In this document: positions 3,154 to 36,407 of the stretch, in pieces
Numbering within the stretch: position 1 is the stretch's first letter
Layout: each line of letters begins with the position of its first letter
From: a virus
Lineage: Duplodnaviria; Heunggongvirae; Uroviricota; Caudoviricetes
IMG/VR virus record: IMGVR_UViG_3300032007_000003
Span: 376,029 to 412,435 of that record
DNA length: 36,407 nucleotides
Reading direction: 5' to 3' (one strand)
Notes under the pieces: generated by a model
Databases searched by the model: none
What the model was told of the DNA's origin: nothing
Seen by the model: the letters and a program-made list of their open reading frames with translations, nothing else
Program-made: the position numbers and the translations under genes

Positions 3154-3186
3154 TTTGCCAATTCAAAATTATTTCGTATATTTGCA
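3154..3186 (+). promoter_or_regulatory. Bacteroidota-type promoter (divergent from 3056-3089)
   Basis: TTTG-19nt-TATATTTGCA. Confidence 0.8.
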
Positions 3187-3220
3187 CCATCAAAACAACA
3201 ATTAATAACAGATTTAGATT

Positions 3221-3611: not shown

Positions 3612-3824
3612 CAAAAACATCACCCATAAAAACCCATCAGTAGAAGAAAAATAGGTAGGTTTCCCCAATCTTGGTGTTCGCACATCGGAAGAACTTAATC
3701 CCCAATAAGCATTACATACCATTCGCTATGGTTTGTTTTATCCTACCTAAAGGTGTTTTGGGACTTGCCACCGACACTACGCTAAACGCTACGTTAAATG
3801 TGCCCTAACACCTATTTCTCTTTG

Positions 3825-3916
3825 ACAAGATAGTGGGACTCGAACCCACGTTATACAATCCATGAAATTGTAGTCACATCTTATGATGCCGCATGAACCA
3901 ACTCTGCTATATCTTG
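3825..3916 (-). tRNA. atypical tRNA / tRNA-like element (anticodon ambiguous: CAT with an extra arm, or a degenerate class II tRNA)
   Basis: Acceptor CAAGATA/TATCTTG (7 bp), T8A9, D arm GCA-GAGTTGGTTCA-TGC, T arm GTGGG-TTCGAGT-CCCAC. Two hairpins lie between the D and T arms; no encoded CCA. Confidence 0.7.
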
Positions 3917-4982: not shown

Positions 4983-5016
4983 TGCAAAGGTACGAAAAAA
5001 AATCCATTCCACCAAA
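4983..5016 (-). promoter_or_regulatory. Bacteroidota-type promoter
   Basis: Minus strand TTTG-20nt-TACCTTTGCA. Confidence 0.8.
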
Positions 5017-6272: not shown

Positions 6273-6535
6273 TTATGGGCGAGTAGTGCCCCCACCATAG
6301 GTGGCCCCTACGTCTCCCGTGGTGGGGTGGGGGATTTTAACACTCTTTAACACGCCAACAGTTCTGTAAATAAATTCCAGGAAAAAAAAATTGTCTTCTG
6401 AGAAGGGGGTGGTCCAAATTTATTCATGGGCATGTTCAAAAAAATTCTGGAAAAATTTTTTTAAAAAAAATGCATATTACTATTGAAATTTATGTCCCCT
6501 CCCATTATATTTTATAATAAGAAGTGTTTATAAAT

Positions 6536-8948: not shown

Positions 8949-9299
8949 TCATTGGTATTGATTTATTATTTTTTTATATTGTGTATATTTTTCGAAGAAC
9001 ATATTTCTCCATATGGTGCAGTATTTGCTCCAGAACTTGTGTCCTTGTGGTGTAGTTCTCCATTCGAAAGCGTAGTTAATTAGTTCAGAGTAACTTTCGA
9101 AGTCTAGTCTTTTATTTTTCATTTGTATTCCGTATAGGAAACCTATTTTCCAATTATTTGGTTTTAGAGTTTCTTGTATAAGGCTTTGTACTAAGTTTGT
9201 TCTATATTGTTGATAGATATTGTTTTCTTTTAGGAACTTTGTAAAGTCTCTAAGTATTTCTTTTTTCAGTTTTTTATATGTTTTTATATCATTTGTCAT
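8949..9299 (-). CDS. hypothetical protein
   Basis: 116-aa ORF with an AFEWRTTPQGHKFW motif. Confidence 0.7.
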   Translation of the reverse strand: MTNDIKTYKKLKKEILRDFTKFLKENNIYQQYRTNLVQSLIQETLKPNNWKIGFLYGIQMKNKRLDFESYSELINYAFEWRTTPQGHKFWSKYCTIWRNMFFEKYTQYKKIINQYQ

Positions 9300-9669
9300 A
9301 TTTAATTACTCTTACGTCTAGTCCTTTGTTTTTACAATACTCTATCATGTGTTTTGTGCCATGAGACTCGCCATCCCAAAATGCGATAAGAGCATCGGCT
9401 ACTTCTCCCATTTGGCAATTACGAATGAATCCAGCCTTCTTACCATATTTATCCCAATCCGCTAGATATACCTCTACTAAAAAGCCTTCATTTTTTGCAT
9501 ACTCTTCTCCAGTTTTATCTGCTCCACGTGCTCCACCACTAACTACAATCACGTCATAGTTTTTTCTTTTTTCAATTAGAAGTTCATTACATTTTTTGGA
9601 TAAAAGGTCATAGTCATTGAAACCTCTTGAACCAGCAATTACTACTCTAAATTTTTTTTTGTTAGCCAT
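9289..9669 (-). CDS. SLOG superfamily (YspA/DUF2493-like) protein
   Basis: VVIAGSR, VVSGGARGAD, IRNxxM, ALIAFWDGESHGT. Confidence 0.85.
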   Translation of the reverse strand: MANKKKFRVVIAGSRGFNDYDLLSKKCNELLIEKRKNYDVIVVSGGARGADKTGEEYAKNEGFLVEVYLADWDKYGKKAGFIRNCQMGEVADALIAFWDGESHGTKHMIEYCKNKGLDVRVIKYDK

Positions 9670-13805: not shown

Positions 13806-16800
13806 TTAGAAATCTGCGAGTGCATCGACAGTTTCAGCGTAGTTATACTGTATATCATCGAAGACGTATCCACCAGTTGAAGGTGTACGATTTGGTATCT
13901 TCTTGAAATACAATCTCATATCTGATGAATTGAGTGTCATTAGATTTTCTATTGATTTTGGCAGAACTCCATCTTCCTCAAATTCATCCACCTCATCGTT
14001 TGTAATTTCCTCAAGAGCATCGAGATACTTCTGATTTTCCTCTTGGAACATAGCGTTGTTCTCTTCTTCCTTTTCTTTTTTATAGTTTTCAACAAGGGCA
14101 TCCCAATCAATTCCACATTCCTTAACGAATGGTGGAACTTCGTTAATCTTGAGCCAATATTCGATTTCCTTTTTCTCTGGAGTCATCAATGCCTCATATG
14201 TATCTTGGTCTCCCTCTTTATTTGGATAACCACTTACAAGCTTTGATTCCTCTTCAGTAAAGTACTTCTTATCTTTTGGATTGGTTACAAGTATTTTATC
14301 TCTAATATCTGGGTGGAAACATACCAATAGAGGTCTGATTCTATTATTGAATTGGTCAATGTATTTCTCAACATTGTACTCAAGACCCTCATAATCGCTG
14401 CAAAGCACGTCATCCTCAGTATCAAGAATTTCTTTTGGTACTAGTTTACAATTAAGTATGATTTCATCCTCATCGAATACCTTTGCTCCGAATTTCTCTC
14501 TACCTAATTCAAGTCTGTTTTTCTTATCTTTCCAACCATTCGCCTTGAACTCCTTGGTATATTCCTTATATGCCTTTTCCAATTCCTTTGTTATCTCAAC
14601 CTTTTCACCATCAACGTAGTTATAGTAGTGTGTAACACGTTTAACGTCTGAGTGCCCTTTCTTCTGACCAGTGTTGATGTAATATACTGTATCACCTACA
14701 TTTGGTGTTAGACCTTCCTTGAGTGCGAGTTCATACCAAGCTTGGCGTGATTTCTTTGAACCAGCCTTGGTGAGTGTTTTAGTATCAGCTTCATAGTCAG
14801 CTAACGTTTTCTTGATATTCCCTTTTGATGCTATATCTCTGATAGGAATTTGGTAGTTATATATTTTACCGATATAGTCATAATAATTTGACAAGAACTT
14901 ATATCCATTATTTCTAAGTAGAAGGTCAACACCTTCATCGATGAATTTCTCAAGGTATCCACTCATCTTTCTAGACTTAATGGTATTACCCACTTTCTTT
15001 GTTTTACCATCTGGCATCAAGTCAGCGTAGTTCTTTCTTGCGAACTGGATACAAGCATCACAATACTCGTCTATACCCAAACCCATCTTATTGATGCCAC
15101 CATTATATGCTTGTGATAGATATATATCCTCGAATTCTGCTACGTCAGCATCAACACGTGTATATTCCTTACCCTTGATGGAATTACGACCAGCTCCATT
15201 TGAAATGTATGGATGTTCCTTTGTATATCTAAAGTCCTCTTCTCTTGGCATTTGGAAGTTGAAACCATCGGTGTTGTGGCATACTATCATACCGAGTGCG
15301 TTAACAAATGTTCCATCAGCAGAAATATCATATACATATTCTGATTTACTTGTAATGTTAGAACAACTCCACACTTCGTCTTCTTTTCTCTTTGAATAGT
15401 TTTCGTTCAATAGACTTCCACGATGATTTCTAAGTCTGAAACTAATGAATTCTTGTTTATCATTTCTATTATGACAACGGAAATTATAATCAAGTTCTTT
15501 CATCAAGAAATAAAGTCCAGCCATTGCAACCTTTGATTTCTGCCCAAACTCTATACATTCATCAATTGTATCGTTTTGTCCATCACCACAACAGAATCCA
15601 TCTAAGAATGCTTTCTTCACTTCTTTCTTGGCATTTAATATGAACTCTGGAACTTTCTTATATCTATATGATGTATAGAAGTTATTGGAGAAGAATTTAG
15701 CATTTTCAGCATTCTCAACGACAAGATTATAAACATTGGATGATGTTCTATGGTCTTTTATTGATGCCTTTAACAAGAAACTGTTCTCCATAATCTCCTT
15801 TGCCTTATTAAGTCTATTAAGGGATTTGTTAGAAATTTTCCAACTTGCTCTCTTCCCTTTGTGCGTTACCCATTCACCTTTTCGCTTAGAATAGTACTTT
15901 TGAGTTCTATCACAATATACAGAACTACCATCTGCCATAAAGAATCCAAATAACCAAGCCTCCCTATCAGTTACGGTTGAACTTGCAAAATAGTTAATAT
16001 CTTTTGTGTATATTTCTATTTTGTCACCACGAGCAAGCGTAGAAGGTTTCACCTCATTACCATTATTGTCAAACAATGAATGGTCTTCAGTACAATCAAT
16101 GACACCATTTTTGGTTTCAACTCTCTTGAGTTGTTTATTTGTTTTATGCTTATAGACATATTCAATTGGTTTCCAACCGTTCCTTGTAAGGACTTCATAA
16201 TCTTTCTTAGAGAAATCTCTGTATTGTCCTTGTTCAAATTCTACAGCTTCATTAGCATTGAATATGTCGCATATTGGTATAATATCAATTCTATTATCTT
16301 TACCCTTAATAAGTATAGGTGTATCATATGTAACGCTATCTCCAACGATTGGTTCGTAACCTATTGACCTAAAGTGACTTATCATCAATCTCAATGCCAT
16401 TCTACTGATACAAGTTGTCTTTTCTGCTGCAAGAATATCTCCGAATGGGAATACATTTGGTGAACCATAACCACCGAAGAATGAGTTTGCAAGAATCTTA
16501 AGAGGCAACTGTTTCTTATCGTTACCGCTTTTTTCAGCTTTCCAGAATGTGATTTGTTCCTCGATTTCAGTCTTCTCACTACCTTCAGCAGTCTTAAGCT
16601 TATCCTTAAGTGAATCAACCTTATCTCCTGCATCTGCTTTAAGTCCCTTATATTTTTCACGTTGTGTTAAGATATATTCAAGGAATGAAAGCATGACATT
16701 CATCACATCGATTGGTGTTGATACGTGCCATGTAAGGATTACAGATGGGTAAAGTGAGTTATAGTCAAGCTTCACGATACGGTCAACGTATCCTGTCTTA

Positions 16801-18206
16801 AGAAGTCGTGAAAGACCACCTGTGAATCGTTTATTAGGTGCTGCTGCTGGAATTGCTAGGTTGTTTTCATAACACCATGCAAGCATGATAAGTTTCCAAA
16901 TACCAGCTGTACCCATTGTACATGCTCTTGAGAAGTTTGTAGGCAACATCTTACCAACAAGGAAGTTAGACTCATTTAGTTTGTCTTCAACCTTATCGGT
17001 TTCCCAAATATCATCTAGAAGGTATCGTTCAACGATATATCTACCACTTACTAGATTATATCCTTTTAATAATGGTTTTTTATCTGTTACTCTATACCAA
17101 TCACCATCTTCCTCACAAAGCCCATATACTTTTTCTTTTACGTTCCATGTATCAGTAATCTTATCACCTGGAACGTATACTCTGTTTGGTTTCTTAAGGT
17201 TAAGATATTTTGTGACATATTTCAAGTTTGATTTCTTCATGTTTGAGTCGATTGCTTGTGCTCTACGAGCTGCATGAAGTGAATCAAGCACGTTATGTCC
17301 CCACATGATTGTTGGGTAGTAGTATTCTACCTCTCCACCAAGTTTAAGGACTGATGCCTTTTTCTTCTTATATATTGCGTGTTTGAAATATTGTAGTGAT
17401 AGTTCTGAGAAGTCTATACCATAGTGTTCACAGCGAACAATGAAGAAGTTCCAGTCGAAGTTTTCTGAGTTATGACCAACCACCGTATCTGGTTTCAATT
17501 CAGCCAATATTTGAAGGAATTCCTTGATTGCAGCGATTTCGCTTGCATCTAGTTCTTCCTTTGTGCTACCTTCCACTTCGATTATCTTCTCATATCCTTT
17601 ATTGGTGCGTATACCAATCTGTTCAATTCTGTGTCTCTTTGGGTCAAGACCTTGTGTTTCCAAGTCAAAGATGAAACGATTGAGTTGGTTATAGGACTCA
17701 TAGCCCTTAAAGAGTCTACGTCCAGTTGCAATCATGTATTGCTCGATTGGAGTAATACCCATAAACTCTCTGTTTCCACTTGTATTTACCTCGTCTTTCT
17801 TTTGTCTTGGGTGAATTGGGGTTCCAGCTTTAGAGAAGAAGCCTTGGAATACTTGGTTACTCATTTTTCTAGTGGTGTAGAAAAGGTATTTATAACCGCT
17901 TTCCAATCGTTCATGTTCCTCTCCGCTATCGTTTGAGGTGATTAGTTTTTTTACTTTGATGCCGTACATGTTCAGATACTTTCTGAGTTCAGACCTATTG
18001 CCTCCGAACATTCTTATTGCGGCACTGTGTTTTACCCAAATAAATGGTTTAAAGGCATCTTTTCTGACTCTTTTAATTCCATTTTGGTCAACGTAGATAA
18101 TGCTAACTTCATCTTCGTCCCAAGCGCACTCAATGGATATTATTCGTTCCATTGGGTCGTGTCCGTTAAGAAAGGTGTTAACAACCTCAGTTGTAATCTC
18201 TTTCAT
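13806..18206 (-). CDS. family B DNA polymerase with 3'-5' exonuclease, intein-containing
   Basis: ExoI FDLETQG, ExoII HNSENFDW, ExoIII YLLDD, DYNSLYPS, KILANSFFGGYG, and VGD|TDG split by an intein. ATG at 18206 preferred. Confidence 0.95.
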   Translation of the reverse strand: MKEITTEVVNTFLNGHDPMERIISIECAWDEDEVSIIYVDQNGIKRVRKDAFKPFIWVKHSAAIRMFGGNRSELRKYLNMYGIKVKKLITSNDSGEEHERLESGYKYLFYTTRKMSNQVFQGFFSKAGTPIHPRQKKDEVNTSGNREFMGITPIEQYMIATGRRLFKGYESYNQLNRFIFDLETQGLDPKRHRIEQIGIRTNKGYEKIIEVEGSTKEELDASEIAAIKEFLQILAELKPDTVVGHNSENFDWNFFIVRCEHYGIDFSELSLQYFKHAIYKKKKASVLKLGGEVEYYYPTIMWGHNVLDSLHAARRAQAIDSNMKKSNLKYVTKYLNLKKPNRVYVPGDKITDTWNVKEKVYGLCEEDGDWYRVTDKKPLLKGYNLVSGRYIVERYLLDDIWETDKVEDKLNESNFLVGKMLPTNFSRACTMGTAGIWKLIMLAWCYENNLAIPAAAPNKRFTGGLSRLLKTGYVDRIVKLDYNSLYPSVILTWHVSTPIDVMNVMLSFLEYILTQREKYKGLKADAGDKVDSLKDKLKTAEGSEKTEIEEQITFWKAEKSGNDKKQLPLKILANSFFGGYGSPNVFPFGDILAAEKTTCISRMALRLMISHFRSIGYEPIVGDSVTYDTPILIKGKDNRIDIIPICDIFNANEAVEFEQGQYRDFSKKDYEVLTRNGWKPIEYVYKHKTNKQLKRVETKNGVIDCTEDHSLFDNNGNEVKPSTLARGDKIEIYTKDINYFASSTVTDREAWLFGFFMADGSSVYCDRTQKYYSKRKGEWVTHKGKRASWKISNKSLNRLNKAKEIMENSFLLKASIKDHRTSSNVYNLVVENAENAKFFSNNFYTSYRYKKVPEFILNAKKEVKKAFLDGFCCGDGQNDTIDECIEFGQKSKVAMAGLYFLMKELDYNFRCHNRNDKQEFISFRLRNHRGSLLNENYSKRKEDEVWSCSNITSKSEYVYDISADGTFVNALGMIVCHNTDGFNFQMPREEDFRYTKEHPYISNGAGRNSIKGKEYTRVDADVAEFEDIYLSQAYNGGINKMGLGIDEYCDACIQFARKNYADLMPDGKTKKVGNTIKSRKMSGYLEKFIDEGVDLLLRNNGYKFLSNYYDYIGKIYNYQIPIRDIASKGNIKKTLADYEADTKTLTKAGSKKSRQAWYELALKEGLTPNVGDTVYYINTGQKKGHSDVKRVTHYYNYVDGEKVEITKELEKAYKEYTKEFKANGWKDKKNRLELGREKFGAKVFDEDEIILNCKLVPKEILDTEDDVLCSDYEGLEYNVEKYIDQFNNRIRPLLVCFHPDIRDKILVTNPKDKKYFTEEESKLVSGYPNKEGDQDTYEALMTPEKKEIEYWLKINEVPPFVKECGIDWDALVENYKKEKEEENNAMFQEENQKYLDALEEITNDEVDEFEEDGVLPKSIENLMTLNSSDMRLYFKKIPNRTPSTGGYVFDDIQYNYAETVDALADF
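15273..16337 (-). mobile_element. intein (355 aa) with LAGLIDADG homing endonuclease
   Basis: Starts SVTYDTPILI; block B CTEDHSL; LFGFFMADGS and FLDGFCCGDG; block F VYDIS; ends CHN before a +1 Thr. Confidence 0.93.
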
Positions 18207-18281
18207 GATTTGAATTGTTTTGCTTTTGTTATTTTCGTTGAACCTTAAGACATACCAAGATGTCATCAGTTCTTAGGTTTT

Positions 18282-20508: not shown

Positions 20509-20542
20509 TGCAAAGATACGAAATATATTTGATATGACCAAA
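20509..20542 (-). promoter_or_regulatory. Bacteroidota-type promoter
   Basis: Minus strand TTTG-20nt-TATCTTTGCA. Confidence 0.8.
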
Positions 20543-20578: not shown

Positions 20579-21724
20579 CTATTCCGCAGAAGCTATCGCA
20601 TATTCTAATTCAGCATTTTCTTCTTTTTTTCGTTGAGAGTTTATGTAATTTAATATTTTACTAGAATCTTTATATCTTAGCTTTATTAACTCTTCTATAG
20701 AAGTTTTTTTAAAGAAATCAATTATTTCATTTTTTATGTCTTCTTTACATCTGTCAAGATACCCAAGAGTTTTAATCCTAATCTTTTCTTCTACATGATA
20801 TTCTAATGCAGATAGGGGATTTTCAAATGTTCTGCTATCGTTACCAATTGCTAAATATTTTTTATCAGCTTGTCTAAACCTAATCATGGTCGTTGGGAAA
20901 GCATCTGTTTCAGTTCTATAGCCGTAATGTGGTTTGTCAACTAACATTTTAATAACATCCCCCAAGCGCACTAAATCATCAAATTCAACAACATCTTTAT
21001 TTTTCATGAAACATGGTATTCTGAATGAAAATGAATCTTTTTTAACGTCATAATTTACTATCCATTTTTGAATAGTAAATGTTTCACCAATTTTCATGCC
21101 CCATTCTTTAATGTATCCACTCAATGTGTTAAATGTTTGTTCAGCACTTTTTATTCTTGCTTTTTCTAATTTCTCTTCTTCTGTATAAGTTTTTCTATTT
21201 CTAAATGGGTTAGCAATTGCTAACCTAGTATTGTATCCATTTTTTATCGTATCATATTTTTCTATGTAATAGTTTTCAGAATCTATTAATTTTTCCGCAA
21301 GGGTGTTTTCTTCTAATATTAAATAAACAAAATCATTTATATTGTTTTTTCTGAGTTTGTCTATGGTTTCATTTGCGTATTTTGTTTCGACCCTCAAGAA
21401 ATCACTGCATCTTCTGAATAAATCTTCTGCACTACCAACATAACCTTTTTTCTCCTTGGTATTAAACCACATATATATACCAGAAATATGAGGAGGATGA
21501 TACATATGTGTTTTTAGCAAGTGTATATCATATTCTTTGATATATTCAATTGTTATACCATTAGAGGTTACATACTCTTCTCTATTTTTTAATGAATTAT
21601 TTGATGTAACTTTGTTACTATCGGCAATGTTTTGTAGATATTTGCATTCATGCTTATATGCTTCTAATTCATTTACAAATATACTCCCATCACTTGTTAA
21701 AAATGCCATTATTTCTTTTACCAT
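20579..21724 (-). CDS. GIY-YIG endonuclease-domain protein
   Basis: SGIYMWFN...GYVGSAEDLFRR...ENYYIEKYDTIKNGYN. Confidence 0.82.
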   Translation of the reverse strand: MVKEIMAFLTSDGSIFVNELEAYKHECKYLQNIADSNKVTSNNSLKNREEYVTSNGITIEYIKEYDIHLLKTHMYHPPHISGIYMWFNTKEKKGYVGSAEDLFRRCSDFLRVETKYANETIDKLRKNNINDFVYLILEENTLAEKLIDSENYYIEKYDTIKNGYNTRLAIANPFRNRKTYTEEEKLEKARIKSAEQTFNTLSGYIKEWGMKIGETFTIQKWIVNYDVKKDSFSFRIPCFMKNKDVVEFDDLVRLGDVIKMLVDKPHYGYRTETDAFPTTMIRFRQADKKYLAIGNDSRTFENPLSALEYHVEEKIRIKTLGYLDRCKEDIKNEIIDFFKKTSIEELIKLRYKDSSKILNYINSQRKKEENAELEYAIASAE

Positions 21725-21726
21725 AT

Positions 21727-21760
21727 TGCAAAAATACAGAAAATTTTTAATTAAACCAAA
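21727..21760 (-). promoter_or_regulatory. Bacteroidota-type promoter
   Basis: Minus strand TTTG-20nt-TATTTTTGCA. Confidence 0.7.
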
Positions 21761-26017: not shown

Positions 26018-28156
26018 ATGGCAAATAATAATGTACAGAACGTTAAGTTCTTGCGTAATGGTAGCGTTTTTACACCTAGTCTTAACCCTGTAAAAACAGC
26101 TCGTGAAGTTGCATTAGATGCAATGAACGGACAATTGGATAATCTTGTTGATGGTACTGCGATACTTGGTCGTTACCAAGAAACTAATGGTATTGTAAAG
26201 ACACTTGTTGGTTTTGCTTATATCAGTGATAATGCTAAGACTCTTACAGTGTTTGATGTCGATGGCGCAGGTGCTGACGTTGATGCAAAAATAAAGGCTG
26301 CAATTGATGCACTTGATTCTGATGCAACTAGTGTAGATGGTAAGAATGTCCAAGTTAAGGTAACTGAGACTGACGGTAAGATTACAGCAGTTAATATTAC
26401 TACCGATAATACTGTTAATAGTGGCGATGTTGCAAATGCAATAGAAGATGCAATCAGTGAGTTGGATGGCTCAGTAGTTGCTGAAACTGGTTTTTATGTT
26501 AAATCAGTAACAGAAGCTGACGGTAAAATTAGTGGTACAACAGAAGTCCTTCCAAGTTTGGCAGAAGTAAAGGAAACTGGTAAGCCAATTGTAGCAGTAA
26601 GCGAAGACAAAGGACAAGTTGCAGCAAGTGTTGGTACAATCAACGCTGGGTTTGTTAATATCGCAGATAGTGGTTCTCTTATTTCAGCAACAACCGTAGA
26701 AGGTGCTCTTGCTGAGATTGCTGCTGAAATTAATGCAATGGATAAGAGTGCATCTGCTGAGGATGGTAAAGTTGTAACAACTGTATCTGAGGCTGATGGC
26801 GTTGTATCTGAGACTAAGGCTAATGTTAAGGACTTACAGCTTGGTGGATATGTAAAAGATACCACAGCTACTGGTAACATTGCTTCTAGCGATACTATTA
26901 ATGCTGCATTGAGCAAGTTGGAGAACAAGGCTGCTGCTATTACAATTGCAAATGCAGATGGCTCTATCAATGTAACAACTGTGGCAAGTGGAACTGACAT
27001 CAACGTTAATATCAAGAGTGGTGAGCACATTCTTGCAAAGGATGGTAATGCAGGTATTTATACTAATATTTCTTTGAGTAGTATTACTCCTTCTTCTACT
27101 ACAGTTAAGGAGGAATATCAACTTACTGCAACAGATGGAACTAAGCTTGGTGATACCATCAAGATTTATAAAGATAGTTCTATTGTAGAAATTTATCTTG
27201 GTACAAGTGGTGACTCTGTTGATGCAACTACTGGCGTTATAACAAAACTTGACGGTGATAAGCAATACTTGAACTATGTGTATTTGGATGCAAATGGTAA
27301 TTACCAAATCACAAAGGTTAATATTTCTGTTTTCATTACCGAGCAAGAATTTGCAAGCGGTGTTACATTTGATTCAACTGAGAATAAAGTAAAGGGTGTT
27401 GTTGACCCAACTTCTGAGTCATTCTTGACTGTAGGAACTGATGGATTTAAGCTCTCTGGCGTACAAGATGCAATTGGTACTGCTATTAGTGGACTTGATG
27501 TAAGCGACAGTGCTGTTGCTGGACAGTATGTTTCACAAGTTTCAGAAACTGATGGTAAGATTGCAGTTGTTCGTGCTAACGTATCTGAAGCTGTATTGAA
27601 TAACTATTCTAAGGGTAGTGATAGTGGTTCTGTTGCTTCAACTGATACCATTAATCAAGCAATTAGCAAGTTAGAGAACCAGATTGATAGCAAGGTAGAT
27701 GCTCTTGATGCAACTGTAAGTGGCGAAACTGCTGATGGCAAGGTTAATGTTAAGGTAACTGAGACCAATGGTGTTATTACTGCTGTTGATGTTGTTGGTA
27801 CTGACATTGCTTCAGCTAGCGCATTGACTGCTGAAATTGCAGCTCGTAAGGCTGTTGATGGACAGAATGGTGACACATATGCTGCTAATACATCTTCTCC
27901 ATACATTAGTGGTGCAACAAGTTTGAATGATGCTGATGTTAAGTTGGCTAGCGCATTGAAGTCATTGAGTGATGCTACTGTTAATGAGGTTCAAGTTAAT
28001 GGACATGCTCTTGCTGAAACAGGCAACGCAGTAAACATACAGATTAGTGCTGCTGCTGGAACTGGAGCTGCTTCAACTCCAATTACGGTATATACTGACA
28101 ACTCAACTGGTGCTATTACACTTAAACTTGAAGGACTCGATTGTGGCACTTACTAA
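26018..28156 (+). CDS. tail fibre-like structural protein
   Basis: Repeated VxExDGKI and DTINxAxSKLEN units; C-terminal LDCGTY. Confidence 0.7.
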   Translation: MANNNVQNVKFLRNGSVFTPSLNPVKTAREVALDAMNGQLDNLVDGTAILGRYQETNGIVKTLVGFAYISDNAKTLTVFDVDGAGADVDAKIKAAIDALDSDATSVDGKNVQVKVTETDGKITAVNITTDNTVNSGDVANAIEDAISELDGSVVAETGFYVKSVTEADGKISGTTEVLPSLAEVKETGKPIVAVSEDKGQVAASVGTINAGFVNIADSGSLISATTVEGALAEIAAEINAMDKSASAEDGKVVTTVSEADGVVSETKANVKDLQLGGYVKDTTATGNIASSDTINAALSKLENKAAAITIANADGSINVTTVASGTDINVNIKSGEHILAKDGNAGIYTNISLSSITPSSTTVKEEYQLTATDGTKLGDTIKIYKDSSIVEIYLGTSGDSVDATTGVITKLDGDKQYLNYVYLDANGNYQITKVNISVFITEQEFASGVTFDSTENKVKGVVDPTSESFLTVGTDGFKLSGVQDAIGTAISGLDVSDSAVAGQYVSQVSETDGKIAVVRANVSEAVLNNYSKGSDSGSVASTDTINQAISKLENQIDSKVDALDATVSGETADGKVNVKVTETNGVITAVDVVGTDIASASALTAEIAARKAVDGQNGDTYAANTSSPYISGATSLNDADVKLASALKSLSDATVNEVQVNGHALAETGNAVNIQISAAAGTGAASTPITVYTDNSTGAITLKLEGLDCGTY

Positions 28157-28190
28157 ACAGTAGTGAATAAACTTTAACAATTCATATAAT

Positions 28191-28229
28191 AAAAATGCAA
28201 GGTAGTTATCGGAAGCTACCTTGCATTTT
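28191..28229. terminator. intrinsic terminator
   Basis: AAAATGCAAGGTAG-loop-CTACCTTGCATTTT. Confidence 0.82.
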
Positions 28230-28738
28230 AAATAGAAATTGTACTAGTGGTACAAGTAGAACAAAACAATAAACAACGGATACTATTATTCACCGTGTTT
28301 ATTCTGTGGCTTTAAATTTCAAACAACACCCAAAGTAGTATTTGATATAGTGTGTTTGAAATGAACCAACGAATTACTACACAAATTCTTTTATCCATTT
28401 GACATATATTTAAATGAGATGCTAATCTCTTATTTTATATAAACACGAAATAGTTTTAGTAAACATACTTCATTTTTCAATTAAGAAATATTATAAAAGA
28501 AATTTCATAGTATTTTATGAATATTTTGAGAAAAATATTTAACTAAATAAAAAATTTGCTTGGAATTTAAACGTATTCCAAGCCTTTTTATTATTAAACG
28601 TATATTTATCTATAACAATTATCTTGTAATGAGATATTGTATAATATAATGCTGGTATACTTACCATTTATTGAACTCCATAGTTCTGAAAGACAATATG
28701 ATAATAATAAGATAAATAAAATAATTTTTTATAACATT

Positions 28739-31700
28739 ATGACGAAAAATATTAACTATGTTTCTCATAAAAAGAGCAAAGTTAAAAGTAATGGTAAACC
28801 ACAATTACCATCAGCTAATTCATTGGTTGAAGGTGAAATAGCCATTAACTATGCTGAAGACGTGGAAACATTATCAATCAAGAATGAGAGTGGAACTGTG
28901 GTTACATTCTCATCAGACAACTATTACACCGAACAGAAATTGGGTAGCGGATTCACTGGTAGTAATAGTGCAAAGACAGTTACTGACGTAATTGAGGAAA
29001 ACGAAGAAACCGTTTCTGCTGCACTTAATGATTTGGAAGACACCAAAGTAGATAAAGATATAGAAATGGGTCACTATAACACATTAAATAGTGGACTCAC
29101 AATACTTGCTGGTGTTGTTGCAGTTATAAAGGATGAGGTTAGTGGAAAGACAGATACAAGTGCCTTTACAGAACATACTAGTAATTCCAACTTACACTTC
29201 AGTGGTAATGAGAAGGAGAACTTGGATGCATTGACAACCAACATTGCAGCAATCAGTGGTATAACTGCTGATAATATAGATAGCTGGAATGCTGCTGCTG
29301 GTCAAGACCTAACTCAGTATTATAAGAAGACTGAAACAAGTGGCGCAACTGAATTATCAACCGCATTTGGTAATAAGGCTGACAGTAGTGATTTGGTATC
29401 ACTTAGTGGTACTGTTACTGCTCATACAGCAGATACAACCATACACGTAACAACAGATGATAAGAGCAAGTGGAATAACGTAGATAACAAGCTTAATACC
29501 TCTGATTTCAATACTTACAGTGGCGCTGTAGATACAGCTATCGGTAATAAGGTTGATAAAGTAAGTGGTAAAGACTTGTCATCAAATGACTTTACAGACG
29601 CATTAAAGACAAAGCTTGATAATATCGCTAGTGGCGCTGAGGTAAACGTACAAGCTGACTGGACAGAAACAGCTACAACTGCTGATTCATACATTCAGAA
29701 TAAGCCTACACTTGGTACTGCTGCTGCAAAGGGTGTATCTACTGGTATAACTAATAGTGATAACCTTATAGAAGCAAAACATATCTATAGTGGCGTTGGT
29801 GTTACTGTAGCTTATGATAGTGAGAGTCATTATATTCAGCTTAAGAATACTGCTGGTAGCGTATTGTCATCATTTGATGCATCTACATTCTTGGTAGATG
29901 GTATGGTTGATAGTGTAACCCTTGAAACAAAGAGTGGTTCTACATACCTTGTAATTACTTGGAATACAGCAGCTGGCAAAACGAAGACTGAACTCAACAT
30001 TGGTGACATCTTTGAAGCTGATAATTACTATACTACAGCACAAACAGACACTGCTATTGAGGCTGCTACAAGTGGTAAGGTTGATACAACTACATTTACT
30101 GCGCATACAGCAAGCACAGTACATATGACAACTACTGAGAAGACTAACCTTGATTCTCTTGAAACCAATATTGCTGCTATAAGTGGTATCACATCTACAA
30201 AGGTAAGTAACTGGGATGGAGCTGCTACTGATAGTCATACACATAGTAATAAGACTGTATTGGATGGTATATCATCAGATGATATTATCAATTGGAATAG
30301 TAAGACAAGTAATGTGGGTACTGTGACTAGTGTACAGATTGGTCTTCCAACAGGTCTTTCTGCTGCAACCACAGCAATTACAGAGAGTGGTAAATTCGAT
30401 GTTAAATTCAGTGACGGATACTCTATTCCAACAACATTAAAGCAAGGACAATGGGATGAAGCATATACTGCTAAACATAGTCATGATAATAAGACAGTAT
30501 TAGATGGTATTACAACAGCTAAGACATCTTCTTGGGATACTGCTGCAACTAGTGCTCACAATCATAGTAACAAGTCTACTCTTGATGCAATCACAGCTTC
30601 AAGTGCGGCTATTAATAGTTTGACTGGTGCTGTTGGTACGATGGCATTCCAAAATACAAGTAGTTATTCAAGTGCAACACAAGTACAAACAGCACTTGGA
30701 AAGAAGAGTGATACTGGACACACACATGTAAAGGCTGATATTACTGATTTCCCAACAATTAATAATGGCACATTCACTATAAGTGGAAATGGTGCATCAG
30801 TGGTATCCACCTCAGCAAATGCTAGCGCTAATAAGGGTCTTAATATCAAATCAAGTACTAATGTAACAATTACTACTGGAGCAAGTGAGATTACCATTGC
30901 TGCAACAGATACAACATATACTGCTGGTAGCTTTGTAACCATTACGGGTTCTAATAACAGTATCAATGTAACTACTGGTACAACTAGTTCTTCTGTTTCT
31001 CGTGGAGACCATAACCATGATGCTGTATATACCAAGATTACAGACTCTGAGGCAATGGAACAGACACTTGCTGCTGCAATAACTGATATTGATAGCAGAG
31101 CTGCTGATAAGGAAGAACTTAAGGCTCTTGTCAACGATTACCAGGACTTCAAACTGATGTATGAGAATCGTAGGGAGAGAAAGAGATTCACCAATAGAGA
31201 TGACTTCGTTGCAAGATTAAAGATGGCTGCTGCTGACCAAAACCTTGAAAGATATGGTTTGAAGGTCGGTGACTACTATACTACTACTAATGGTGGTAAA
31301 ACATACAACTATGTAATCGCAGGGCTTAACACAATGAAGGGTACACATAGTTACAGATTAACAACAGACCACGTTGGTATTATAGTTGATACAAATGATA
31401 CTCACGCTTGGAATGTAAGTGGTAATACATATCAGAGCACAAACACATATTCAACTGGAGGAACTTGGAAAACTGGTGCTTCTGCTGCTGGTTATGCTAA
31501 CTGTGACCTTCATTATTACTTAACTACTACAGTTCTCCCTTATGTTGAAGCAGACCTTGGCAGTGCAAATATAAAGAGTCATTATAAGTTATACTCAACA
31601 GCAGTCAATACAAGTGGTTATAACCGCTTTGGTTCAGCTGGAGGTTGTTCTTCTTCTTGGGCTTGGTATGCTGGGCAAAAGATATGTGCTCTCTCCGAGA

Positions 31701-31936
31701 TTCAAGTATATGGTTCAATAGTATGGAGTTCAAGTGGATATGACACTGGTGAGGCTTGCCGTCAGCTTGACGTATTCAGAGTGTACAATATGAACGAGAT
31801 ATTCGAGGGTCGCTATCCTTGGTTGAGAGACGTTGCTTCGGCTTCTAATGCCTGCCATGTGGGCTACCATGGCTATGCGGACACTACCGCTGCTTCTTAT
31901 GCTCATTACGTTGCTGCGCTTATCCTTTTTGCATAA
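28739..31936 (+). CDS. tail fibre / receptor-binding protein, DGR target with a C-terminal C-type-lectin-like domain
   Basis: N-terminal LVEGEIAINY fibre motif, HxH repeats, C-terminal LSEIQVYG...YPWLRDVAS domain carrying the VR. ATG at 28739 preferred. Confidence 0.88.
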   Translation: MTKNINYVSHKKSKVKSNGKPQLPSANSLVEGEIAINYAEDVETLSIKNESGTVVTFSSDNYYTEQKLGSGFTGSNSAKTVTDVIEENEETVSAALNDLEDTKVDKDIEMGHYNTLNSGLTILAGVVAVIKDEVSGKTDTSAFTEHTSNSNLHFSGNEKENLDALTTNIAAISGITADNIDSWNAAAGQDLTQYYKKTETSGATELSTAFGNKADSSDLVSLSGTVTAHTADTTIHVTTDDKSKWNNVDNKLNTSDFNTYSGAVDTAIGNKVDKVSGKDLSSNDFTDALKTKLDNIASGAEVNVQADWTETATTADSYIQNKPTLGTAAAKGVSTGITNSDNLIEAKHIYSGVGVTVAYDSESHYIQLKNTAGSVLSSFDASTFLVDGMVDSVTLETKSGSTYLVITWNTAAGKTKTELNIGDIFEADNYYTTAQTDTAIEAATSGKVDTTTFTAHTASTVHMTTTEKTNLDSLETNIAAISGITSTKVSNWDGAATDSHTHSNKTVLDGISSDDIINWNSKTSNVGTVTSVQIGLPTGLSAATTAITESGKFDVKFSDGYSIPTTLKQGQWDEAYTAKHSHDNKTVLDGITTAKTSSWDTAATSAHNHSNKSTLDAITASSAAINSLTGAVGTMAFQNTSSYSSATQVQTALGKKSDTGHTHVKADITDFPTINNGTFTISGNGASVVSTSANASANKGLNIKSSTNVTITTGASEITIAATDTTYTAGSFVTITGSNNSINVTTGTTSSSVSRGDHNHDAVYTKITDSEAMEQTLAAAITDIDSRAADKEELKALVNDYQDFKLMYENRRERKRFTNRDDFVARLKMAAADQNLERYGLKVGDYYTTTNGGKTYNYVIAGLNTMKGTHSYRLTTDHVGIIVDTNDTHAWNVSGNTYQSTNTYSTGGTWKTGASAAGYANCDLHYYLTTTVLPYVEADLGSANIKSHYKLYSTAVNTSGYNRFGSAGGCSSSWAWYAGQKICALSEIQVYGSIVWSSSGYDTGEACRQLDVFRVYNMNEIFEGRYPWLRDVASASNACHVGYHGYADTTAASYAHYVAALILFA
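31832..31924 (+). repeat. DGR variable repeat (VR)
   Basis: 93-bp ungapped match to 32502-32594 with 15 mismatches, each opposite an A in the TR. Confidence 0.96.
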
Positions 31937-31981
31937 AAAGGATTTAACTAAACATTGCTACCCTCGTGTGGGGTAGCAATG
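31922..31981 (+). promoter_or_regulatory. two hairpins 3' of the VR (candidate DGR target-recognition elements)
   Basis: ATCCTTTTT-GCAT-AAAAAGGAT (31922-31943) and CATTGCTACCC-TCGTGTG-GGGTAGCAATG (31953-31981). Confidence 0.7.
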
Positions 31982-32022
31982 ATAATTGTGAAATAATTTA
32001 AGAATAAAAAATACTTATTGTT

Positions 32023-32469
32023 GTGAGTGTTGTAAAATCAAAACGAAATAAGAGTAAAATAGAATTTGAAATGATATATTTTAAAGTTGCTGATGGGGTT
32101 GACAACTTGATAGAACATAATTTCTATGCAAAAGGTGATTTATTAGAGAAAAATCGTGTATTCCTTGAAATAAGGTACAAATCACTTGAAGAACTTACCG
32201 ATACTCTGTTATATCACATAAAGATAGCAAACTCCATATATCCAACTTGTATGACTGAATGGGAAGAAAGAAGAACAACCATTGGAAAGGCTATTGGAAC
32301 GTGTTATGCAATTCTCACACATTATCAGCGGATAATGATGAGACTGAGAATACCCGACAACAAATATGTCGATAACATTGCTGATGTTGTTAGGATGATA
32401 AACAGTCTTAAAGCATGGAGAAAAAGTGATAATAAGTTAAAGATAACACTTGAAAATAAACAACAATAA
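32023..32469 (+). CDS. avd: DGR accessory variability determinant (Avd-like four-helix bundle)
   Basis: 148-aa basic helical protein between VR and TR; MSVVKSKR start, IANSIYP, LKAWRKSD. Confidence 0.85.
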   Translation: MSVVKSKRNKSKIEFEMIYFKVADGVDNLIEHNFYAKGDLLEKNRVFLEIRYKSLEELTDTLLYHIKIANSIYPTCMTEWEERRTTIGKAIGTCYAILTHYQRIMMRLRIPDNKYVDNIADVVRMINSLKAWRKSDNKLKITLENKQQ

Positions 32470-32501
32470 AGTAAAATAATAAATAGGTTTGATTCTGTAA
32501 G

Positions 32502-32594
32502 GTTGCTTCAGCTTCTAATGCCTGCAATGTGAACAACAATGGCAATGCGAACAATAACACTGCTTCTAATGCTAATTACGTTGCTGCGATTAAC
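32502..32594 (+). ncRNA. DGR template repeat (TR)
   Basis: AAY-rich intergenic copy of the VR between avd and RT. Confidence 0.95.
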
Positions 32595-32746
32595 GTCTGA
32601 CTAATTGATACACAAGAATCATGGTTGTTCGGATGATAAGGAGAATTAAACCTTCCGTTTCATAAACGGTAAATATGTAGGGTGACGTTTCTTGATACGT
32701 CAAATGAAACTATAAGCGCCCTGCTTTTTTATGAAATAAAATTGTT

Positions 32747-33886
32747 ATGATTGGTTTGGAAGAACTGTTTGAATTTGATAGACTGAATGATTGTACATAT
32801 GGAAGTACGACACAGAGCAGATGGAAGGAAACAACACAACGCTATCTTACCAACATGCTCATTAATAACTTGGGACTTCAGAAAGAAATACTTGAATATC
32901 AATATTCTGTAAAACCTACTGTAAATTTTGACTTGAATGAACGTGGTCGCATGAGACATATAGAAGCACCTGTTGTGAGGGACAGAATTGTTCAGAAGTC
33001 AATTACAGTTAATGTTCTTACACCTTCTTTAACACCATATGTGATATATGATAATTATGCCTCGTTGAAAAACAGAGGAACATCATTCGCAAGGAAACGA
33101 ATTGAGATAATGCTTAGACGTTATATAAGACAATATGGTATTGATGGATATATAATGCTTATAGATATTAAGAAATATTTCCAAAACATAGACCATGAAG
33201 TTTTAAAGTCCTTGATTAAACCAAAAATAGTTAACGTAAGCGAAGATGTGATGGACTTGATTAACTATATCATAGATACTAGTTCCAAGACTGACAAGGG
33301 TCTTAACCTTGGTAGTGAAGCACCACAAGTATTGGCATTATATTATCTTACGCCAGTAGATATATTTGTCAAAGTAGTTAAAGGAGTCAAGTACTATGGA
33401 AGGTATATGGATGATATTTTCGTAATAGGTAATTCAAAAAGTGAATTGATTTCTCTGCTTACTGAGATAGAAACTGTATTATCAACATTAAAACTTGAAA
33501 TAAACAAAAAGAAGACACAAATCATTAAATTGAGTCGTGGATTTATATTTCTACAGATTAAATATAATATATTGTCTAGTGGGAAGATATTGAAAAGACT
33601 TACTAGGAAGAAAATCGTAAGGGAAAGACGAAGACTTAAGTCATTACGAAGAATATGTGATATGGGTCTAATAAGCGAAAACGATGCGTGGAACTGTTAT
33701 CAATCATGGAGAGGTACTATTGTAAAAGACCATAATGCGTGTCACAAGACAATACTGAATATGGATAGGTTATATAAGGAATTATTTCCAACTCATACAT
33801 CAAGCATTAAGCATGGTAGAAAAGAAACGTGTGAAAGAGCATTTAGTTCTGCAAACGCAAAAGATTTGAATAAATTATTTATTTAA
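32747..33886 (+). CDS. DGR reverse transcriptase
   Basis: RDRIVQ, DIKKYFQNIDH, GLNLGSEAPQ, YGRYMDDIF, GFIFL; 379 aa with no maturase or endonuclease domain. Confidence 0.95.
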   Translation: MIGLEELFEFDRLNDCTYGSTTQSRWKETTQRYLTNMLINNLGLQKEILEYQYSVKPTVNFDLNERGRMRHIEAPVVRDRIVQKSITVNVLTPSLTPYVIYDNYASLKNRGTSFARKRIEIMLRRYIRQYGIDGYIMLIDIKKYFQNIDHEVLKSLIKPKIVNVSEDVMDLINYIIDTSSKTDKGLNLGSEAPQVLALYYLTPVDIFVKVVKGVKYYGRYMDDIFVIGNSKSELISLLTEIETVLSTLKLEINKKKTQIIKLSRGFIFLQIKYNILSSGKILKRLTRKKIVRERRRLKSLRRICDMGLISENDAWNCYQSWRGTIVKDHNACHKTILNMDRLYKELFPTHTSSIKHGRKETCERAFSSANAKDLNKLFI

Positions 33887-33899
33887 AAATATTTTAATT

Positions 33900-34550
33900 A
33901 TGATAAACGAAGATATTAATTTCGATAAGAGAAATGCCCTCAATGCTGAGAAGGCACAGTTAATGAGTAATCTTGCAGAAAACACATCACCAATAGGTGA
34001 CTGGAAGATTATGAAAATCTATGAGGCACGTATGAAGGGTGCTGAAGACCCATATGATTTTGATGAGCTGACTCTCCAGAGACAAGCCGCAAGAGACCGC
34101 ATTCAAGACATAAACATCGAGCTTAATAAACTTGATGGTATAGAGCCTACTGAGGAAGAACTCCTTACTCTTGCAAAGAGTAGAAAACAGAATGACATCA
34201 CTGAATATGATAATTCAGCCAATGTTAATTCATTCATTATCTACGGAGAACCAATGTGGCTTAACTTTGACCAGCGTTCACGTTTGATGGCTTCTCTTGA
34301 GGCTATAGAGGCTGACGGTGGCACTGAAATGACAAAGACTTTCGCTGGTAGGGAGTACACATTTTCAACAGCTCAGTGGAGATTTATGATAAATACTGTT
34401 GAAAACTATGCTAGTGCTTGTAAGAACATAACAGATGAACATAGAGAAAGTGTGTCTGAACTTGATAATATAGAGTCTGTGGAAGTTTATGATTATACAG
34501 TAGGATACCCAGCTAAAATTAATTTTGACGAGGAACTCTCAAATTTCTAA
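33900..34550 (+). CDS. tail fibre assembly-like protein (DUF4376-like C-terminus)
   Basis: GDWKIMKIYEA...PYD...RQAARDRI N-terminal domain; YDNSANVNSF...MWL...YDYTVGYP C-terminal domain. Family call is from recall. Confidence 0.6.
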   Translation: MINEDINFDKRNALNAEKAQLMSNLAENTSPIGDWKIMKIYEARMKGAEDPYDFDELTLQRQAARDRIQDINIELNKLDGIEPTEEELLTLAKSRKQNDITEYDNSANVNSFIIYGEPMWLNFDQRSRLMASLEAIEADGGTEMTKTFAGREYTFSTAQWRFMINTVENYASACKNITDEHRESVSELDNIESVEVYDYTVGYPAKINFDEELSNF

Positions 34551-34553
34551 TAT

Positions 34554-35099
34554 ATGAAAAAGGTATCTGAGATATTGGATATAGAAAAGAATAGAGATAA
34601 TGATTTAAATGTGATACATCTATTCAGATGCGGTATGTTCTACAGAGCATATAATTGGAGTGCTTGGCTGATGAATTCATTCTTATGCGATAAAAACCCA
34701 TTATCTGTGCTATGCAGAAAATATAAAAGTACTGATGAAGAATTTGTATTCATTGGGTTTCCTATAAAATCATTTGATAAATTTATTCCGAATCATGTTG
34801 AAGTAATATACATAGGAGATAATCAGATTGATGTTAAGGTAGAACTTACATTTGAAACGAATGATTCATTACGCCAACAGCATATGTGCGATATGTTCAA
34901 TGATTGGAAAAGTAATTTCAAACTACCAGTAGCAAAACCAAAATGTGATAAACATTTAAATAAGAAGACAAGTGAAGCATCTGTTAACATTTCATCAATT
35001 ATGACTCAGATTCTTTCATATCCATTGGAGGCTAAGACACCAATAGAAAATATAGAGTTCATAAGTAAGTTAAAAACACAACTTACGGCATTAATTTAA
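34554..35099 (+). CDS. MutS domain I-like small protein (MSL-type DGR accessory candidate)
   Basis: IHLFRCGMFYRAYNWSA...IGFP resembles the MutS mismatch-binding domain; LEAKTPIENIEFISKLK resembles the MutS C-terminal helix pair. Confidence 0.7.
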   Translation: MKKVSEILDIEKNRDNDLNVIHLFRCGMFYRAYNWSAWLMNSFLCDKNPLSVLCRKYKSTDEEFVFIGFPIKSFDKFIPNHVEVIYIGDNQIDVKVELTFETNDSLRQQHMCDMFNDWKSNFKLPVAKPKCDKHLNKKTSEASVNISSIMTQILSYPLEAKTPIENIEFISKLKTQLTALI

Positions 35100-35140
35100 C
35101 AAAAATAGATAAATAACTATTATTAAATAATAAATTGAAT

Positions 35141-35353
35141 ATGATTATAGTAAATTCAAAACACATTATTGCTGATGAAGGAAAAGTTCTCATCAGAACA
35201 TGGGATAATATGAACTTCGGATTCGAGGCATTCCTTGGACAAAGCATAAGGGATGGAGTGTTGGTTGATGACAAGCCAGAAGATTTTCATGAGGAAGATT
35301 ATACTCCTGGCGGAGGTGGTGATAACCCAATGAAAAATAATGAAGAGGAATAA
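35141..35353 (+). CDS. small hypothetical tail-associated protein
   Basis: IIADEGKVLIR...DKPEDFHEED; lies in the operon. Confidence 0.7.
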   Translation: MIIVNSKHIIADEGKVLIRTWDNMNFGFEAFLGQSIRDGVLVDDKPEDFHEEDYTPGGGGDNPMKNNEEE

Positions 35354-35377
35354 AATAATTTTAATATAGCATAAATC

Positions 35378-36407
35378 ATGAAGTATACAAAACAATATGA
35401 AACCGAATCAGCATACCTAGCTGACAGTGGAAAGACAAAGCCAAATGTGTCACTAGTCATTGAGGACGGGTCAAGCAAATTCAACCCATTTAGTATCGAT
35501 GGAAGAGTAGCAGAACCAGGAGCAATTGTAATGGTGAAGACAGTAACACCAACTGAGAGAATATTTGTTCCTTACGAATCTTATGATAAGAACACATATT
35601 CAGCATACACAGCAATCGCTGTTGTTGTAATGCCATTCTCTCATACACTAGACAATACAGTGAGAGTTATGTCACTTAAGAATATGGATTTAACATCACC
35701 AGACAGTGGTAGCGTAACAAAGAACGGTAGTTACTCAAGTATCTCATTCTACTGGGGTGGATATGGTACTGATGCAGGACTTCCAAAATTAGACAGAGTA
35801 CCTATAGTTGATATTAATGACCAAGATAGTGGTACTATTGGTTCTACTGATTGGATGAGAATTCCAAGTAATTACGTAAAAGGTAGCACATTTAGCGGTG
35901 GAACAGATTCTGTATTAGACCCTGGTACTAAATATTACAGTAGTATCGAAGCAGGAAGATGTGGAATATCTCCATATGCAATATATGATTGGAAATCAAC
36001 AAAATGCCTTGATGTAATTGATAAATCTCGTAATGCTATGAGAGATTATGACGGAAGTGGTAATACTGCTACAATACTTGCTCTTGATAATGCAGTGAGT
36101 ACTGATTGGCAGACTGCTTCAACTATTACTAATAACAGTGGTGCTACCAATATTCATGCTCCAGCTCAGTGCTGTTGGAGATATAGTACACTTGGTACAA
36201 CTCAAGGTCAATGGTATCTACCAGCTTGTGGCGAATTAGCTTATCTACCAGCAAGATATGCTGACATCAATGAGGCTCTTACAAGACTTATGGTTGCTGA
36301 TTCAACACAAGCTATCAGACTATGGAGAAACGACCCTACAGTACAAGACTCTGCCAGTTCTGTTTATGGCAGTTGGCTTTGGTCTTCGTCTGAGAACAGT
36401 GTTAACA
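35378..36407 (+). CDS. DUF1566/Lcl-like lectin-fold protein, 3'-truncated (missing from the supplied ORF track)
   Basis: Translated by hand: open from ATG 35378 to the window end, with DGSGNTATI, PAQCCWRY, QWYLPACGEL, WLWSSSENS. Confidence 0.8.
   Translation, partial: MKYTKQYETESAYLADSGKTKPNVSLVIEDGSSKFNPFSIDGRVAEPGAIVMVKTVTPTERIFVPYESYDKNTYSAYTAIAVVVMPFSHTLDNTVRVMSLKNMDLTSPDSGSVTKNGSYSSISFYWGGYGTDAGLPKLDRVPIVDINDQDSGTIGSTDWMRIPSNYVKGSTFSGGTDSVLDPGTKYYSSIEAGRCGISPYAIYDWKSTKCLDVIDKSRNAMRDYDGSGNTATILALDNAVSTDWQTASTITNNSGATNIHAPAQCCWRYSTLGTTQGQWYLPACGELAYLPARYADINEALTRLMVADSTQAIRLWRNDPTVQDSASSVYGSWLWSSSENSVN

Follow-up and report, generated by a model that had tools for sequence, protein, structure and literature searches.

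Sequence evidence for a recently active diversity-generating retroelement, one of a tandem pair, in a giant T4-like gut phage

We analysed a stretch of 36,407 nucleotides (the window, in whose coordinates features are given unless the contig is named) that covers positions 376,029 to 412,435 of the IMG/VR virus record IMGVR_UViG_3300032007_000003, a member of the Caudoviricetes. The window very probably holds, at 28739-33886 on the plus strand, a complete diversity-generating retroelement (DGR) of the BPP-1 type that rewrites the lectin-fold tip of a fibre-like protein in a giant phage. This cassette, DGR-1, runs in the order target gene 1, Avd-like gene, template repeat (TR1), spacer and reverse transcriptase (RT1), and the variable repeat (VR1) lies at the 3' end of the target gene. 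The reading is based on a repeat pair with adenine bias, the affinity of RT1 to DGR reverse transcriptases (RTs), a predicted lectin fold, covariation in the spacer and turnover of VR1 at adenine sites. An earlier note, made from the letters and open reading frames (ORFs) without database searches, had already proposed a BPP-1-type DGR; all components that it named are present, and the best solved relative of RT1 is the RT of BPP-1 itself (bRT).

VR1 (31832-31924, +) and TR1 (32502-32594, +) were realigned over 93 bp without a gap. The 28 adenines of TR1 accounted for all of the mismatches (15/15; hypergeometric P 4.8e-10), as had been reported from the sequence. In the target frame, TR1 reads VASASNACNVNNNGNANNNTASNANYVAAIN and VR1 translates to VASASNACHVGYHGYADTTAASYAHYVAALI. 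Both strings and the 11 internal AAY codons of TR1 matched those given before, and a twelfth AAY codon stands at its last codon. The variants reachable from the 11 internal codons, 15^11, were computed as 8.65e12, in agreement with the earlier figure of about 9e12. The homology of the two repeats ends directly after the common GTTGCTGCG block. The last two mismatches, at 31919 and 31923, are the same in two strains and may represent fixed differences between the ends of VR and TR rather than mutagenesis. We also looked across the 412-kb genome for further VR copies, silent ones included, that would pair with TR1 or with TR2, the template of a second cassette described below, and found exactly one VR per TR.

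In DGRs, the target is recognised through an initiation of mutagenic homing (IMH) element and a hairpin or cruciform at the 3' end of VR. At this place, the GTTGCTGCG block is followed by two stable hairpins with a putative recognition role, which together gave a DNA fold z of -7. Hairpin 1 (31922-31943, +) has a 9-bp stem and a GCAT loop and spans the stop codon at the VR end; a hairpin stands at the same position in the related loci L003 and L004, with different stem letters. Hairpin 2 (31953-31981, +) has a G+C-rich stem of 12 bp with no T-run behind it. The same position was occupied by a G+C-rich hairpin in all related loci compared (7/7), again with different stem sequences and no T-run. 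Hairpin 2 is a candidate for either the DGR target-recognition hairpin or a terminator.

RT1 (32747-33886, +) is a protein of 379 aa with YMDD and the motif LGSEAPQ, and it matched Pfam RVT_1 (5e-17) and PHROG 1423 (2e-69). Its best match in the PDB was bRT of BPP-1 (8ub7_A, E 3e-13), followed by a Cas6-RT-Cas1 fusion (1e-7), another RT and then a group II intron RT. Placement in an RT tree had been set beforehand as a test of the DGR call. The tree was small, comprising four named DGR RTs and four group II RTs without retron or defence RT outgroups. Within it, RT1 was nested among the named DGR RTs, as sister to the DGR RT of Roseburia phage Shimadzu (100/99); the group II intron clade stood separately (100/100) on a branch of 1.7. 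The close GenBank phage relatives of RT1 all come from DGR-bearing phages, and among the matches listed they sit in records of 62 kb or less. In motif 4, the hallmark of DGR RTs is [LIV]GxxxSQ, and that of group II introns is GxxxSP. RT1 and its seven closest relatives carry GSE[AC]PQ, in which the Gln is kept and the Ser has been replaced by Pro.

Relatives of RT1 with 38-64% identity were found in 17 IMG/VR loci. In 11 related IMG/VR loci, VR is likewise followed by an Avd-like gene, TR, spacer and RT, and 85-100% of their VR/TR mismatches are located at adenines. These loci bear on the possibility that the repeat pair arose by chance or by duplication and has no retroelement function. Short repeats occur in AT-rich phage genomes generally, and nothing further speaks for such an origin. 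It is refuted by the adenine-only pattern (P 5e-10), by the recurrence of this pattern in the eleven related loci, and by the DGR-clade RT and the conserved spacer RNA beside it; we regard its probability as negligible.

The spacer between TR1 and RT1 (32595-32746, +; 152 nt) appears to be the structured part of the DGR RNA. When the spacers of seven loci were aligned, compensatory changes were seen in 15 of the 30 predicted pairs. Rfam returned nothing in the related loci at gathering thresholds. Below threshold, the spacer matched the Rfam motif RT-2 (RF03077) at 32613-32744 with 26.3 bits (E 2e-4; the gathering score is 40), and the spacer of L004 likewise matched it with 33.1 bits. Both spacers match the model end to end, on the RT strand and just upstream of the RT. 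RT-2 belongs to the same motif series as RT-10, which Weinberg et al. identified as the BPP-1 spacer; RT-10 is the sole motif that they assigned to a DGR, and they guessed that other RT motifs serve DGRs as well (Weinberg et al. 2017, PMC5737381). Over the TR and spacer (32464-32775), the depth of contigs in rumen metagenomes reaches hundreds to thousands, compared with 13-30 in the flanks. Because the depth over the TR and spacer far exceeds that of the flanks, other very abundant elements would share TR- and spacer-like sequence.

The gene between VR1 and TR1, avd1 (32023-32469, +), is a divergent Avd-like accessory gene of 148 aa. Its GTG start agrees with homologues that begin MSVVKSKR, and a Pfam domain was found in none of its 478 homologues (0/478). 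The AlphaFold2 model of the protein is a four-helix bundle (pLDDT 89). Foldseek gave no significant match to this model in the PDB. With VIA-align, a structural matching method independent of Foldseek, the best natural matches were members of the 23S-IVS/Avd family, namely the IVS proteins 2gsc (Z 13.6) and 2rld (Z 13.1) and the Avd proteins 8ub7_B, a chain of the BPP-1 ribonucleoprotein (Z 12.5), and 4dwl_A (Z 12.0; root-mean-square deviation 2.0 over 106 residues). An hhalign comparison of the avd1-family alignment with avd2, the canonical Avd gene of the second cassette, was not significant; only one short stretch, a W-(K/R) motif close to the C-terminus, was aligned. We therefore speak of avd1 as Avd-like by predicted fold and position only. 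The statement of the earlier note that avd and an intact YMDD RT flank the TR holds for the RT; the name avd holds in this restricted sense, as the sequence tests failed.

Target gene 1 (28739-31936, ATG to stop, +) encodes a fibre-like protein of 1065 aa that ends in the variable domain with the predicted lectin fold. Repeated HxH/NK..LD motifs abound in its first 785 residues, and the protein has a sub-threshold match to Pfam PTR ('phage tail repeat'). Tandem Repeats Finder detected no DNA repeats in the gene, and a PDB sequence search with the whole protein found no relatives. The language-model leads point to phage fibre families only, including head-fibre and fibritin families, with Atlas scores <0.9.

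The C-terminal domain of 280 aa (31094-31933, +) had no match in Pfam, and PHROGs and NCBIfam gave nothing for it. It belongs to a family with 680 representative clusters in metagenomes, in which it is always C-terminal, in proteins of 225-1776 aa. An AlphaFold2 model was built from an alignment of 38 family members (pLDDT 92.1, pTM 0.88). Foldseek against the PDB gave no significant match with this model. Nearly all of its VIA-align matches were C-type lectin folds: the best was 9qa6_A (Z 11.0), followed by the C-terminal domain of Legionella Lcl (8q4e, Z 7.6), a Bacteroides fimbrial protein (Z 7.1), about 40 animal C-type lectin domains (Z 5-6.5) and Treponema TvpA (2y3c, Z 5.2). We take Lcl_C and TvpA to be relatives of DGR targets. 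VR1 encodes the last strands of the domain and is thus predicted to lie at the C-terminal end of a C-type-lectin fold. The structure prediction agrees with the diversified tip proposed in the earlier note; that the tip belongs to a tail fibre is what we infer, and the points on either side are weighed below.

For the strain comparison, assembled contigs from two sheep runs of a different study were aligned to the window. One sheep contig over 30800-32551 (1752 bp) showed 18 differences, 15 of which were inside the 93-bp VR1 (Fisher P 2e-17). The strains thus differ at 16% of VR1 positions and at 0.18% of positions in the flanks. TR-adenine positions accounted for 14 of the 15 differences (P 3e-8), and 11 of the 31 residues of the VR1 peptide were changed. 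The avd1 gene, TR1 and the spacer were 100% identical between the window strain and the sheep strain, and five VR1/TR1 mismatches were common to both. The turnover of VR1 with an unchanged TR1 therefore fits rewriting from the same TR. Adenine-position variation in VR beside a fixed TR, which is the mark of mutagenic retrohoming and which the earlier note had proposed to look for, was seen at the contig level between near-identical strains of different studies. Judged from these contigs, DGR-1 is recently active.

A second sheep contig, over 32522-33900, had 12 differences, all within the RT1 gene. These single-nucleotide polymorphisms (SNPs) cluster in 180 bp (33250-33430), and the cluster may be a recombination patch.

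We considered whether the cassette could be a relic in which the VR differences between strains are old alleles shuffled by phage recombination, rather than the outcome of ongoing mutagenic retrohoming. This view would be in line with a comparison that covers consensus contigs only, with the resemblance of the 12-SNP cluster in RT1 to a recombination patch and with the five mismatches that both strains have in common. However, all ORFs of the cassette are intact, and avd1, TR1 and the spacer remained identical while VR1 diverged far beyond its flanks. The bias of the VR1 changes to TR adenines is what rewriting from the same TR predicts, and the neighbouring second cassette shows two VR alleles in one assembly. 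A relic is consequently very unlikely, and the preferred reading remains a DGR that has worked recently.

For an active DGR-1, we propose the following course, in which the details of priming and retrohoming would follow BPP-1. TR1 would be transcribed together with the 152-nt structured spacer. RT1, probably in complex with the Avd-like four-helix bundle, would copy this RNA into cDNA and misread adenines. The cDNA would then take the place of the 93-bp VR1 at the target gene's 3' end, with the conserved end of VR and the hairpins behind it as guides. In this way, up to 12 AAY codons could be recoded on the surface of the tip with its C-type-lectin fold, and many binding variants would arise in the phage population.

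Several points weigh against parts of this reading. The N-terminal 785 residues of target 1 showed no sequence homology to any characterised tail fibre in Pfam, PHROG and PDB sequence searches, and the language-model Atlas matches of the protein are all below the 0.9 level. No sequence-level link of avd1 to Avd was obtained with Pfam bAvd, PHROGs, NCBIfam, a PDB profile search or hhalign, and high Z scores arise unspecifically with helical bundles, which applies to the structural matches of avd1 as well. The RT1 motif is GSEAPQ and not the canonical G..TSQ. One strain change in VR1 (31879) is off the TR adenines, the VR1 variation was seen between strains in a comparison of assembled contigs, and one low-depth variant contig was found in X4. 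Finally, the Avd function of avd1, like a switch of host range as the outcome of the process, is something that we infer.

What the diversified protein does for the phage depends on its identity, and a receptor-binding tail fibre is the most likely one. The DGR might instead be active on a different fibre exposed on the virion, for example a whisker, head fibre or appendage that binds glycans or mucus, and tune environmental adhesion and not host range. Target 1 has no homology to any characterised receptor-binding protein, and head-fibre and fibritin families are among its language-model leads. Since the target of a second DGR follows after 1.5 kb, one of the two at least may differ in role. 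In addition, some DGRs of gut phages are known to have targets that lie outside the structural module (PMC8008677). On the other hand, target gene 1 sits within a run of long fibrous-protein genes, all on one strand, and the next gene after the cassette, orf216, has a weak match to a tail-fibre PHROG. Shimadzu, the closest named relative, carries an annotated tail fibre protein, Avd and RT in the same order, and most viral DGR targets of this type are proteins of the tail (PMC8144416). On balance, a role in adhesion other than host range is rather unlikely, and we retain the receptor-binding tail fibre as the preferred identity of the 1065-aa protein.

The gene orf216 (33900-34550, +) directly follows RT1. 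Its PHROG matches, among them the weak tail-fibre one, were phrog_17180 (4e-8) and phrog_1807 (5e-4). By tblastn, homologues in close loci have 64-70% identity; in distant loci only the N-terminal 70 aa are shared, at about 49%. A homologue is located directly 3' of the RT in every related locus with enough sequence. It could be a fifth cassette gene or merely the next tail gene.

A genome search for further RTs revealed a second one at contig 1242-2474, just past the end of the window. It belongs to a complete second cassette, DGR-2 (locus L019), which extends on the plus strand from window position 35378 to the window end at 36407 and then on to contig position 2474, in the order target, TR, avd, RT. 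The earlier note had no view of this cassette. Target gene 2 starts 1.5 kb beyond DGR-1; it occupies 35378-36407 and 104 further bases, up to contig position 242 across the circular junction (+), and encodes 378 aa from stop to stop. The C-terminus of target 2 reads YGSWLWSSS...VRAF, and its nearest Atlas clusters are DUF1566/Lcl_C (scores 0.90-0.94), which we treat only as a lead to an Lcl/DUF1566-like protein. VR2 (contig 79-233, +; 155 nt, with the first 60 nt at window 36348-36407) and TR2 (contig 606-760; 155 bp) differ at 22 positions, all at TR2 adenines (22/22), and a hairpin with an 11-bp stem stands behind VR2. The accessory gene avd2 (contig 863-1222) encodes a canonical bAvd (Pfam bAvd 1e-16). 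RT2 has the canonical motif IGNLTSQ and YVDD (Pfam RVT_1 3e-14), and its identity to RT1 is 26%. By this measure, DGR-2 is a distant relative of DGR-1 placed directly behind it. None of the relatives of DGR-1 with enough flanking sequence has a DGR-2 downstream.

DGR-2 also lies across the ends of the source contig. The source genome is a single contig of 412,435 bp with 34% G+C, and its first 138 bases repeat its last 138 bases (window 36270-36407 corresponds to contig 1-138), so the genome closes on itself. Only two mismatches occur in this terminal overlap. Because both are VR2 positions opposite TR2 adenines, two VR2 alleles must have coexisted in the source sample. The assembly broke inside the hypervariable VR2 and the terminal repeat was hidden, which probably accounts for the linear classification of a genome that closes.

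The earlier note had described the carrier as a large phage encoding PolB and a sigma factor, and this description was substantiated. The 412-kb genome encodes a gp23-like capsid protein. PolB (13806-18266, -; 1485 aa) is a family B DNA polymerase that is split by an intein bearing a LAGLIDADG endonuclease domain, and a sigma-70 factor is encoded at 5469-6182. Temperate phages are the usual carriers of DGRs. The genome gave no match to PF00589 or PF00239, the tyrosine and serine recombinase families, and control genomes did match. From its sequence, we regard the phage as a giant T4-like phage with a circularly closing genome in which no integrase was found. Gut metagenomes of eleven studies, bovine and sheep, contain it, and a megablast search of 28000-36407 against GenBank phages gave zero matches.

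The assignment to a Bacteroidota phage was sustained in part. The Bacteroidota promoter consensus TTTG-N18-21-TAnnTTTG had 6 matches against 1.4 expected, mostly before early or accessory genes; the sites listed are 942-973, 3154-3194, 4985-5016, 20511-20542 and 21729-21760. Shine-Dalgarno motifs upstream of starts were no more frequent than at random positions. Promoter motifs and missing Shine-Dalgarno sites make a Bacteroidota host plausible but unproven. A scan of genome contigs with a profile of the lectin-fold domain gave no confirmed relative; its alignment was too diverse to use, and the scan was uninformative on hosts.

Other features of the window include two free-standing genes for GIY-YIG-type homing endonucleases (6524-7648 and 20579-21724), one of which has NUMOD1/HNH-like parts too. 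ARAGORN predicted a tRNA-Met at 3824-3916 (-), which at 93 nt is unusually long for a Met tRNA. A small protein of the YspA/SLOG family (YAcAr; Pfam 3.5e-15) is encoded at 9289-9669 (-).

To our knowledge, DGRs are the only natural system of targeted protein hypermutation known in prokaryotes and their viruses, and most descriptions concern small temperate phages. Their mechanism is well known; what is unusual here is that the phage is a giant and that two cassettes stand in tandem. Gut phages very commonly carry DGRs (PMC8241571, PMC8144416). In a comparative survey of 224 jumbo phages, none of the lectin-fold domains usual in DGR targets was reported (PMC7824862), and our literature search found no paper that describes a DGR in jumbo or huge phages, which is not proof that there is none. 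With its well-supported, recently active DGR and a second one in tandem, this 412-kb T4-like phage, in which no integrase was found, offers a concrete case in which to ask if huge virulent phages keep their host range broad or shifting in the rumen by means of DGRs. The locus also points to an abundant Avd-like family that current profiles miss, and it offers relatives of the orphan Rfam motif RT-2 a likely function, that of the spacer RNA of a DGR. In practical terms, VR hypervariation at VR2 was enough to break an assembly, hide a terminal repeat and lead to a linear classification.

More broadly, and as a tentative proposal that we rate at slightly below even, a lineage of giant, non-integrating, T4-like gut phages may hold DGRs as standing equipment of the tail-fibre module, and two mechanistically independent cassettes may diversify two different lectin-fold adhesins at once. 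DGR-1 would then represent a large, undescribed sub-family with its own Avd-like protein that lacks a Pfam domain, a GxxxPQ motif in the RT, an RT-2-like spacer RNA and orf216 as a conserved fifth gene.

Among known systems, the BPP-1 DGR (mtd-avd-TR-brt; NC_005357) has the same order as DGR-1, with VR at the 3' end of the target followed by the accessory gene, TR, spacer and RT. The two also have in common adenine-specific TR/VR mismatches, AAY codons, a C-type-lectin-fold tip (predicted for DGR-1) and a hairpin behind VR. They differ in the length of TR (134 bp in BPP-1, 93 bp here), of the spacer (144 versus 152 nt) and of the target, which has 381 aa in BPP-1 and 1065 aa with a long fibre shaft here. 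The RT motif is IGSLTSQ in BPP-1 and LGSEAPQ in DGR-1, and the accessory protein of DGR-1, unlike that of BPP-1, is not recognised by the bAvd profile. BPP-1 is a 42-kb temperate, podovirus-like phage, whereas the carrier here is a 412-kb T4-like phage in which no integrase was found. The departures of DGR-1 from the BPP-1 type are thus the divergent accessory protein, Pro for Ser in the RT signature, the long fibre shaft, the giant phage with no integrase found and the adjoining unrelated DGR.

Roseburia phage Shimadzu (LR596903) has the nearest named relative of RT1, with 36% identity, and the order of its annotated tail fibre protein, Avd and RT is that of DGR-1. The IMG/VR loci L009-L014, which are small gut-phage DGRs, share with DGR-1 the lectin-fold tip family, the Avd-like family and the N-terminus of orf216. 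In contrast to DGR-1, Shimadzu and L009-L014 are genomes or contigs of 17-45 kb with short targets (about 340-430 aa) and the canonical RT motif G..(T/I)SQ. With respect to Rfam RT-2, the spacers of DGR-1 and L004, at 26 and 33 bits, are relatives of the motif and not curated members. DGR-2 resembles a different group, the DGRs with Lcl/DUF1566-type targets and a canonical bAvd that occur in many Bacteroidota and in Legionella. It differs from these in its order of target, TR, avd and RT, in the 372-nt non-coding gap between VR2 and TR2, and in standing in tandem with an unrelated DGR.

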